Shown: positions 25,101-28,100 of the stretch, piece by piece
Position numbering within the stretch: the stretch's first letter is position 1
Layout of the letters: the number at the start of each line of letters is the position of its first letter
Origin: Lingula anatina
Lineage: Eukaryota > Animalia > Brachiopoda
Reading direction: 5' to 3'
Length of the DNA stretch: 64,000 nucleotides
Assembly: GCA_051362555.1 (NCBI GenBank)
Contig: CM120641.1
Span: 25,550,401-25,614,400 of the forward strand
Translations under genes and position numbers: made by a program
Notes under the pieces: generated by a model
Seen by the model: the letters and a program-made list of their open reading frames with translations, nothing else
What the model was told of the DNA's origin: nothing
The model's database searches: none

Positions 25101-28100
25101 GGGGGGCAGCAATCAAAAGAATCATGCTTCTGTCCAGAATAAGTACACCCTGAATCAAAATTTGACAAAGGTTCTATGCCATTTATCACATTGAGAGAAC
25201 TATGGGGGCGGGGGATATATTTCAGAAAATTAACATTTTTTTTATTGCTAGCTATGTACAGACCAGAATTAAAAAAAGAATCTCCAATGGTTCTTAGCTA
25301 GATATCTAATAGTGCTCTTTATATGTATCATTCCAGGTGTCCATCATCAACTAGATTAGTTCAATAAAGTTGAAGATATACATATTTATCTATGACGGAC
25401 ACCAGATTTCCCTTGCCACTGTGTAGATAACCGAGTTAGATTTTCAGCCATTATTTGTAGAGTCTTCAAAACAAACAGGATGCCCCAACTGCAATGTCCT
25501 GTGGTGGGTTGTGACTGGCAGTCACAGGACCTTGACGCTGCCTTCGCAGGAGCCTTAACTGCAGCTCTCCAAATGCATGGCCAGACTGCCCATCCGACTC
25601 AGCCGGCGCCCCAGAAACTCAAGCTGGATCCACCACAAATTTCAACAGGGTCTGATCCAGATCAGTGGTCGGCATTCACCAGGCAGTGGAACATGTACAA
25701 GGCTGGTATGAACATCGCTGAAAACATGGTAGCAACCGCCCTCTTTTACTGTTGTGATCAAGACTTACGCACAGACATTATGCGAGATCTTAGAGACAAT
25801 GTTGCAAATATGGCGGAGGCAGACCTCCTAGCTGCCATAAGAAGACTAGCTGTCAAAGATGAGAGTACCCTGGTTCATCGCATACGACTGAGTAAAATGA
25901 CTCAAACTCCAGGAACCAGTATTAGAACATTTTTGGCAAGCCTGAGAGGCCAAGCAGCATTGTGTCGGTATACAGCCACATGTAAAGAAGAAGGCTGCAC
26001 CCATATGTTTGACTACAGTGATGAAATCATAAAAGACAACCTCATCAGAGGCATCGCTGACCCAGAAATTATGTCAGATTTATTGGGTGACCCTAAAACA
26101 GACAGGACGCTAGAGGAAACTGTATCCTTTATCGCTCAGAAGGAACAGGGAAAAGTGACCAAGAGTGCAGTCGGAGACAATGCTAATGCTGCCAGCAATG
26201 TTAAAAAATCACCACTTGTTCAAACTGATGGGAAACCGAAATGCTGGGCATGTGGTGGACTTGCCCATGGACCAAGAAACGATAGAAGAGCAAGAGCCAG
26301 GAAGTGTGAGGCATGGGGTTTCATGTGTGCCAAATGTGGTGTCAAAGGACATTATACAGACCTTTGCAGCAAATGTAACACCTGCGGTGAATGGGGCCAC
26401 CGGGATAAGTCTTCAAGGTTATGCCAGCAAGGGAGAGGATATAGAAACCCGCCCAAACCACGCACTCAGACAGGTCAAACTAAGGGTACGGACCACGCTG
26501 ACACCAATTATGTATTTGATCAGCTGTGTACGGCTTCCGAAAACAATCCGCCCAGGCGACATAAACCCAACAAGACTGCATTTCTTGATCACCACATATT
26601 TGACGGCCAGTGGATAGCTCGCCCATCAAAACCGCACCCAATGGTTTTAGTGAGAATGACCCCTCTACCTGCAGATCATGCTGCTTTTGGGTATCCGATG
26701 CAAGACACGTCAACACTTAAACCAGTCAACATGTCCATGATTGCGGATACAGGGTGTCAGAGCAGCATAATACCACTGAAGTCGGCTATGGCTCTAGGCA
26801 TAAGGAAAGAAGACCTCTTGCCTGTTAAACTTGTGATGCGAGGTGCCATCAGAGAGAATCTGGGTGTTATGGGTGGCATTGCTGTCAGTGTCTCAGTCAA
26901 AGATGAAAACAATCACATCAGAACGTCTCGCTTGATGTGTTACGTGTCTGAATCCATTGAGAAAGCCTTCCTCTGCAGAGAGGCACTGACAGACTTGGGG
27001 ATAATTAAGCCAGATTTTCCGAGTGCCACGCATATAACACACACAGCTTCAATTGGCCCCACTGACGAAGTTCCATGCACATGTCCAAGGCGCAGAGAGG
27101 AGCCACCACCATTACCCACATCTCTTCCCCCTGGCTTAAAGGCTTTGGAAGAAAATGTTGAAGTGCTTAAAGATTGGCTCCTCGACTATTATGGAGCAAC
27201 AACATTTAATACGTGTGAACACCAGCCATTACCCCTGATGAAGTGTGAGCCGCTCCAACTTCATGTGGATCCAGATGCCAAACCGGTCGCAGTCCATAAG
27301 CCAGCACTTGTTCCAATTCACTGGCAAGAGAGGGTCTTTGCTGATCTTGAAAGGGATGTCCGAATAGGGGTCCTTGAACGAGTCAGCCCAAATACCCCAA
27401 CAACATGGTGTTCCCGCATGGTAGTAACGGGAAAAGCCGATGGCACTCCTAGGCGAACAGTAGACTTACAGCAACTGAACCGCCACTCTGTCCGCCAAAC
27501 ACACCATGTGCCTACCCCCTTTCACTTAGCAAACCGCATCCCACAGGGTGTAAAAAAAACCGTGACGGATGCCTGGAATGGGTACCACTCTGTGCCTATT
27601 AGGGAGGAGGACCGGCATATCACAACATTCATCACACCATGGGGCCGTTACAGATACAAGGTAGCACCTCAGGGGTTTTTAGCCAGTGGAGATGCCTACA
27701 ACCAGAGATTTGATGCCATAATCACAGACTTCCCTAATAAAGTCAAGTGTGTAGATGATACATGCATGTGGGCAAACTCAGTTGAAGAGGCATTCTTTCA
27801 GGCATGTAAGTGGTTAGACCTGTGTGCACGTAACGGTATCACCTTGAATCCCAAGAAATTTCAGTTCGCCCAAGATGCAGTCGAATTTGCTGGTCTTGCA
27901 ATCACACCTACGAACATACAACCAAGTGACAAATTTATAGATGCCATAAGGAAATTCCCAACACCTACAGATATCAGTGGTGCCCGAGCCTGGTTTGGGC
28001 TCATTAATCAAGGCGCTTATGCATTCTCAATGGCACGTCAGATGAAGCCATTCAGGAAGCTCCTAAAGCCGTCCACAAAATTTGAATGGACAGATGAGTT

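Follow-up and report, generated by a model that had tools for sequence, protein, structure and literature searches.

The intact Gypsy retrotransposon in the window (the whole 64,000-nucleotide stretch of Lingula anatina DNA that was analysed) probably uses the first ~12 nt of its own RNA as the primer for reverse transcription, as judged from its sequence and by analogy with Tf1 of fission yeast. This Tf1-like mode, which the initial annotation had proposed, is supported by covariation between primer site and LTR in related families and by tRNA-type control elements, in which the pattern is missing; the mechanism itself we infer. For the clade as a whole, we regard it as moderately probable that these widespread TA-start elements of aquatic animals descended from ancestors of the tRNA-Ser/Leu type and acquired Tf1-like priming independently, with a free primer of 12-17 nt, a fixed A^U cut and a three-way junction. 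Within this same clade-wide reading, such an origin would be the first among non-chromovirus animal Gypsy elements.

Element structure and insertion site

The element spans 5,453 bp (25295-30747) with a single ORF (Table 1) and has the LTR pair, target-site duplication (TSD), polypurine tract (PPT) and domain order PR-RT-RH-IN that define Ty3/Gypsy membership. Its ORF encodes Gag with Cys/His knuckles, protease (DTG), reverse transcriptase (RT; CVDD), RNase H and integrase, and a domain search of it detected neither a chromodomain nor env. The catalytic motif CVDD lies at residues 785-788 of the translated frame P0001; the usual form of this motif is Y/F-x-DD. The best PDB match was Ty3 RT (E 5e-34), and the closest named proteins were from Mya arenaria (87%) and Mytilus (85-86%). 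The RNase H domain and its acidic motifs are present, and primer cleavage by this enzyme is a prediction.

Table 1. Features of the retrotransposon and its host locus, in window positions.
Feature	Position	Strand	Basis or detail
Host intron holding the element in antisense	24917..30755	-	joint 24916-30756, CT..AC ends
Left target-site duplication, 5 bp, GTTCT	25290..25294	+	empty allele skipping 5,458 bases, DNA run X1
5' LTR, 98 nt, TAG…CTA ends, not TG…CA	25295..25392	+	LTR pair
Initiator-like CA; predicted start A25335, alternative A25330	25334..25335	+	CA position across families
Predicted self-primer segment, predicted cut after 25346	25336..25346	+	10/11 pairing, duplex -15.7 kcal/mol
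Second stem (25347-52/25368-73), stacked on primer stem	25347..25373	+	pair probability 0.55-0.91
Hairpin at LTR 3' end (U5; 25374-78/25387-91)	25374..25391	+	pair probability 0.89-0.96; counterparts in relatives
Primer-binding position adjoining the LTR, without TGG	25393..25403	+	
Single gag-pol ORF	25480..30375	+	ATG 25480, stop 30375
Polypurine tract adjoining the 3' LTR	30638..30649	+	
3' LTR, 0 differences from the 5' LTR	30650..30747	+	
Right target-site duplication copy, GTTCT	30748..30752	+	

A 7-bp TSD (GTTCTTA) was rejected because relatives show TAG starts and 5-bp TSDs. TAG starts were found in all six relatives with both ends available (L013, L014, L016, L018, L022 and L024); in these and in the window the LTR 3' ends are TA, GA or CA, and PPT and primer site adjoin the LTRs. 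The integrase would thus join non-canonical ends in the window element and its TAG-start relatives. Before the 3' LTR, the purine tract and an upstream AAAACT-like motif are doubled, both in the window (30535-30561 and 30626-30649) and in L002 (about 830-983), and the second purine-tract copy of the window contains a 16-nt palindrome.

In DNA run X1, an empty allele was recovered as a contig skipping exactly 5,458 bases, i.e. the element plus one TSD. Since TSDs flank both sides and the empty allele is available, the LTR end is fixed independently of any pairing. Sequencing depth in the same run was about 610 for element contigs versus 51-107 for the flanks, which together with the empty allele indicates that the insertion is polymorphic and the family multicopy. 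The insertion is recent, and the element young and intact. Other copies in run X7 share the LTR limits, beginning at 25295 and stopping at 25392, and record 4 of that run (over 25295-25379) is the LTR of a diverged sister family in the same host, with several bases of the primer segment changed. Loose ends in run X1 revealed other insertions of the family with GTCCT and GTTCT as flanks, a hint of some target preference; the TSDs of distant families have no common consensus.

The element sits 8 nt from the splice donor of the host intron, which is spliced out in RNA, as supported by reads across the joint in runs X12 (3 reads) and X18 (9 reads). At a distance of 15 kb, a minus-strand host exon gave a match to ABCA7/ABCA1 (E 9e-11), and the exons flanking the element are assumed to belong to the same gene. 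This host gene is long and intron-rich, with minus-strand exons at 9563-10123 (the ABCA7/ABCA1 match) and 46784-47854 (without a confident Pfam match). A tandem array with a 146-bp unit, 10.8 copies and 93% matches occupies 59917-61486.

Pairing of the primer site with the LTR

The initial annotation had described a pairing of the bases following the 5' LTR with an 11-mer inside that LTR at 10 of 11 positions, ending exactly at the LTR boundary, and a primer site lacking the TGG of tRNA-primed elements. All of its coordinates for this pairing were confirmed; the boundary at which the pairing stops is the one set separately by TSD and empty allele, and no TGG occurs anywhere in 25393-25482. When all internal 11-mers of the element were compared with the LTR, 8 of 5,247 reached 10/11, the primer site included, and none of 20,000 shuffled LTRs did so for the primer site.

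The single mismatch of the duplex, an A·C at the fourth position counted from the 3' end of the primer, speaks against self-priming. In the main family contigs of two DNA runs the primer-site base carries no listed difference, and its partner base does not differ in the deepest LTR contig of X7; the main contigs therefore keep the mismatch, which implies that the family spread while carrying it, although contigs drop rare variants. Either the mismatch is tolerated and no copy of the primer passes into progeny, or the copies stem from one source; both are offered as interpretations.

Covariation in related families

Relatives were collected by a Gag-based metagenome scan (10 loci) and a genome-contig scan (23 loci, all on host contigs within bacterial bins); scans of viral contigs yielded 0 loci. 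Five bacterial genome bins (G001-G005) hold many eukaryotic host contigs with Gypsy elements, which represents contamination, and each bin gave 7 to 150 RNase H matches. An LTR with the bases following it was available for 17 of the 33 clade loci; the other 16 lacked a usable 5' end and did not enter the counts. LTR ends were taken from LTR pairs in seven of the 17 (L013, L014, L016, L018, L022, L023 and L024), from PPT-LTR continuity or contig overlap in three, and from homology by eye in seven.

Pairing of at least 10/11 with the own LTR was found in 14 of the 17 relatives. The remaining three were L023 (9/11 plus one G·U), L009 (7/11; boundary uncertain) and L006 (6/11; a decayed copy). For L004, no LTR was present in 165 nt of leader. 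When sites and LTRs were combined across families, 5 of 306 cells reached at least 10, four of them combining the same or sister families and the fifth a chance match.

Pairs were tabulated for 15 families and 12 positions, leaving out L026 (same family as L016), L006 and L009. Watson-Crick pairs filled 170 of the 180 cells, with 39 pair types, compared with a mean of 83 and a maximum of 131 when the primer sites were dealt among the families in 10,000 shuffles; the families are related, so the covariation counts are not independent events. The 15 families have 15 different 11-mers, with 3-9 of 11 letters in common with the site in the window, and each differing primer site is matched by its own LTR, so that the compensatory change for which the initial annotation had proposed a test is present. 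Position 1 (A·T) is the one pair that never varies, and all 15 families have A^U at the predicted cut. Three of the 17 relatives carry a TGG within the self-paired segment, at offset 3-4.

For comparison, 40 other RNase H loci, mostly with long frames, were drawn from 303 matches in the same bins, and 33 of them had LTR pairs. Clade and controls were scored by one automatic rule on blast-defined LTR ends. Self-pairing of at least 10/11 occurred in none of the 33 controls versus 7 of 9 clade elements, and a TGG site in 29 of 33 versus 1 of 9. The two clade misses arose because truncated 3' LTRs made the automatic rule misplace the end.

Priming by an internal tRNA fragment or another host RNA, in the style of half-tRNA primers and with the LTR match as a secondary matter, is extremely improbable in view of these data, since fifteen sites matched by their own LTRs would need many fragments and coincidence. 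Half-tRNA priming is known from other elements (available parts of PMC6317226), and one tabulated tRNA end ('others') fits the window site by eye if two one-base bulges are allowed. Nevertheless, each of the 189 tabulated tRNA ends has a terminal CCA, and by eye no ungapped fit exists among them; a comparison with Rfam gave no match at E<=1. ARAGORN found no tRNAs in the window or in 30 loci.

RNA structure

Folding of the RNA gave a whole structure of moderate stability (z -1.54; 13 of 200 shuffles equally good). Among the additional stems of the initial annotation, the one following the primer segment is real (Table 1) and shows changes in both arms when the window is compared with L001, L002, L003 and L008. 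The other, 25386-92/25424-30, is fully complementary in sequence (7/7) and scarcely forms in the fold (probability 0.01). It was rejected as it is outcompeted by the hairpin at the LTR 3' end and reaches 3-5 of 7 pairs in the other 14 families.

In 14 of 15 family folds the prediction shows a multiloop that stacks on the primer stem, compared with 4-23 of 200 loop shuffles per family; in stability the loop stems do not exceed those of shuffled loops (mean z -0.02). These two results bear on the possibility that the own 5' sequence primes in trans or without a Tf1-type cut, as a short promoter-proximal or processed RNA or as the 5' end of a second genome copy. All of the covariation would be explained equally well in this way, and the loop stems are not unusually stable. 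The second stem begins at the cut, however, and the multiloop exceeds the shuffles in nearly all families, which suggests folding in cis, so that we consider priming in trans, or without such a cut, quite unlikely.

The motif AATAAA at 25363-68 lies mostly within the loop of the second stem. Its location in the enclosed region, in the window and several relatives, would suit a stem that regulates translation, packaging or poly(A) formation while another primer is used, and priming is so far a prediction from sequence. We nevertheless judge a purely regulatory stem to be very unlikely: in every family passing the pairing threshold the stem stops at the LTR boundary, where a primer must end, the A·T at position 1 is invariant, the leader has no TGG, and AATAAA is mostly looped. 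Self-priming by the RNA 5' end is the interpretation followed below.

Predicted transcription start

In 14 of 15 families a CA dinucleotide precedes the predicted cut by 12-17 nt, against a background of 0.35 at other LTR positions. In several distant families its context is TCAGTT, TCACTT or TCATTA, which we take to match the known initiator, and the A of the CA pairs with the primer site in 7 of 15 families. The initial annotation had placed the initiator at a tcattc. As a start this motif gives way to the CA at 25334-35, whose counterpart recurs across the families. From sequence, a start at A25335, giving a 12-nt primer, is likelier than one at tcattc, and A25330 is possible. A GA(T/C)CC(C/T)TTACC-like motif, a possible promoter element, lies upstream of the predicted start in the U3 of L014, L016, L018, L023 and L027.

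RNA runs contained 4-125 element reads each, and at such depth no start, leader or pile-up of read ends was seen. In the stranded-looking runs X12 and X15 most element reads were antisense. Both observations speak against self-priming.

The 5' part of the RNA might instead be supplied by splicing, with a host exon or spliced leader joined at a YAG before the primer segment and priming otherwise the same. In the window and the relatives nearest to it, the segment does follow a pyrimidine tract and YAG, and an AG is present in 12 of 15 families. The splice-acceptor reading was lowered by the three families without AG (L012, L016 and L018). Moreover, in seven families the A pairs with the primer site and is thus expected in the transcript, the window copy runs antisense to the host gene, and neither an RNA joint nor a leader was seen at the low read depth, which makes a spliced 5' end highly improbable.

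Proposed mechanism

Under the preferred reading of self-priming in cis, transcription would begin at A25335, and RNA nt 1-12 would fold onto 25393-25403, closing a three-way junction with the second stem and the U5 hairpin. The RNase H of the element would then cleave after 25346 (A^U), and RT would extend the freed 3' end over 25392-25347, yielding a 46-nt strong-stop DNA. This DNA would transfer to the 3' R, for which AATAAA (30718-23) would set R far enough downstream. As the PPT adjoins the 3' LTR, a blunt cDNA ending in TA would result. In evolutionary terms, self-priming would have been gained from tRNA-primed ancestors, separately from Tf1/sushi.

Phylogenetic placement

Trees of the RT-RNase H region were calculated quickly with 69 rows and carefully with 33 rows; they are unrooted, have long branches and comprise no named Tf1, sushi or Mag sequence. 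The clade received 100/100 support on a long stem branch. Its nearest rows (L092/L093, L089 and L080/L085/L088) are short-LTR elements whose primer sites are exact or near matches to tRNA-Ser and tRNA-Leu ends of a published table, L085 excepted. The chromodomain-bearing L111/L112, broken copies standing in for chromoviruses, are four starred branches away, and a grouping of the clade with them was rejected (p-AU 2e-10; run after the tree was known). Chromodomains are also present in errantiviruses according to a published list. The Ty3 RT score was 121 bits over 432 aa for the element, compared with 142 for L092, 222 for L089 and 280 over 357 for L083, in agreement with the tree. Of the placement among Tf1/sushi, Mag and other clades suggested in the initial annotation, the position beside tRNA-type rows and apart from L111/L112 was obtained, in trees lacking the named Tf1/sushi and Mag references. 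We presume that the nearest short-LTR rows with tRNA-Ser/Leu sites are Mag-like.

The lack of a chromodomain, stated initially for the window element, extends to 28 full-length relatives. Some Tf1/sushi members, Tf1 included, have no recognisable chromodomain, so its absence alone is not decisive. The three marks of Tf1/sushi membership considered, i.e. a chromodomain, RT grouping with the L111/L112 stand-ins and TG…CA ends, were all missing, and the element does not have the TG…CA ends tabulated for Mag A/C either. As a sequence signature, self-priming is genuine and strongly supported in this clade, which appears to work like Tf1 yet apparently falls outside Tf1/sushi. Because it lies among elements of the tRNA-Ser/Leu type and apart from the two chromodomain-bearing stand-ins, an origin of self-priming independent of Tf1/sushi is likely, as far as a tree without Tf1 itself can suggest. 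Motif searches in supplements of published papers did not find a published name for the clade, and a cluster-atlas comparison of the element returned generic RT clusters only; the clade may previously have received a name based on its RT alone.

Comparison with known systems

The literature behind this comparison was available in part (PMC6934838, PMC8220671, PMC6238403, PMC12471100, PMC4600332, PMC13524379, PMC8556966, PMC5341516, PMC5443660, PMC2864245 and PMC5371799). In these portions, self-priming is described for Tf1/Tf2/Tj1 and, from yeast to vertebrates, for the Tf1/sushi group, with predictions for Tcn1 and TAR of plants; experimental proof comes from fission yeast only, and animal predictions concern Tf1/sushi only. 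Animal self-priming itself is accordingly known from vertebrate Tf1/sushi, and the lineage is the new part. A report of self-priming in a non-chromovirus animal Gypsy clade was not found in the literature covered, outside which lie most subscription journals, Repbase and GyDB. The criterion given in the available parts of PMC6317226, at least 10 nt after the 5' LTR complementary to the own LTR, would class as self-priming the window element (10/11) and 14 of the 17 relatives, and none of the 33 controls.

If true, a separate origin would mean that Gypsy RNase H was re-used for cutting the own RNA more than once in evolution. It would also bear on whether hairpin priming is ancestral, as suggested in the available parts of PMC3601003, or derived. 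Self-primed elements would presumably escape host control by tRNA fragments, and annotation pipelines that require TG…CA ends and a tRNA site would overlook them. Cleavage rules and primer inheritance become testable through the natural families, which differ in their primers and of which one has a fixed mismatch.

The Mag lineage (A, B and C clades; MolGy3, MolGy11 and PolGy1; LGF7-9) resembles the clade in its short LTRs and aquatic invertebrate hosts. Unlike Mag, of which the A and C clades have TG…CA ends in the part of PMC3601003 available, the clade shows TA starts, a long stem branch in trees without named Mag sequences and no tRNA site. For the TAR lineage (Houba, Osr-1), itself a distinct lineage, self-priming has likewise been predicted from sequence, as far as the accessible sources state, but TAR belongs to the Ty1/copia superfamily of plants. 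Vertebrate sushi and plant Tcn1 share predicted self-priming in multicellular hosts, animals included, again according to partly available sources. In contrast to them, the clade has no chromodomain and does not group with chromodomain-bearing elements, and its window LTR ends are TAG…CTA, while TG…CA is tabulated for Sushi (same part of PMC3601003).

The closest parallel in mechanism is offered by Tf1/Tf2 of Schizosaccharomyces pombe and Tj1 of S. japonicus. As in the clade, their primer site complements the 5' portion of R, a tRNA site is missing and the Gypsy order is that of a single ORF, and the window element shares the 11-nt duplex. The Tf1 papers of Lin and Levin, by their titles, reportedly found a U5 stem-loop to be needed, and the U5 hairpin in the window would be its counterpart. 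In Tf1 the first 11 bases serve as primer, and RNase H cuts between bases 11 and 12 (available parts of PMC7175516). Unlike these yeast elements, the clade has animal hosts, LTRs of 80-290 nt with TA starts, predicted primers of 12-17 nt and an RT far from that of Ty3.
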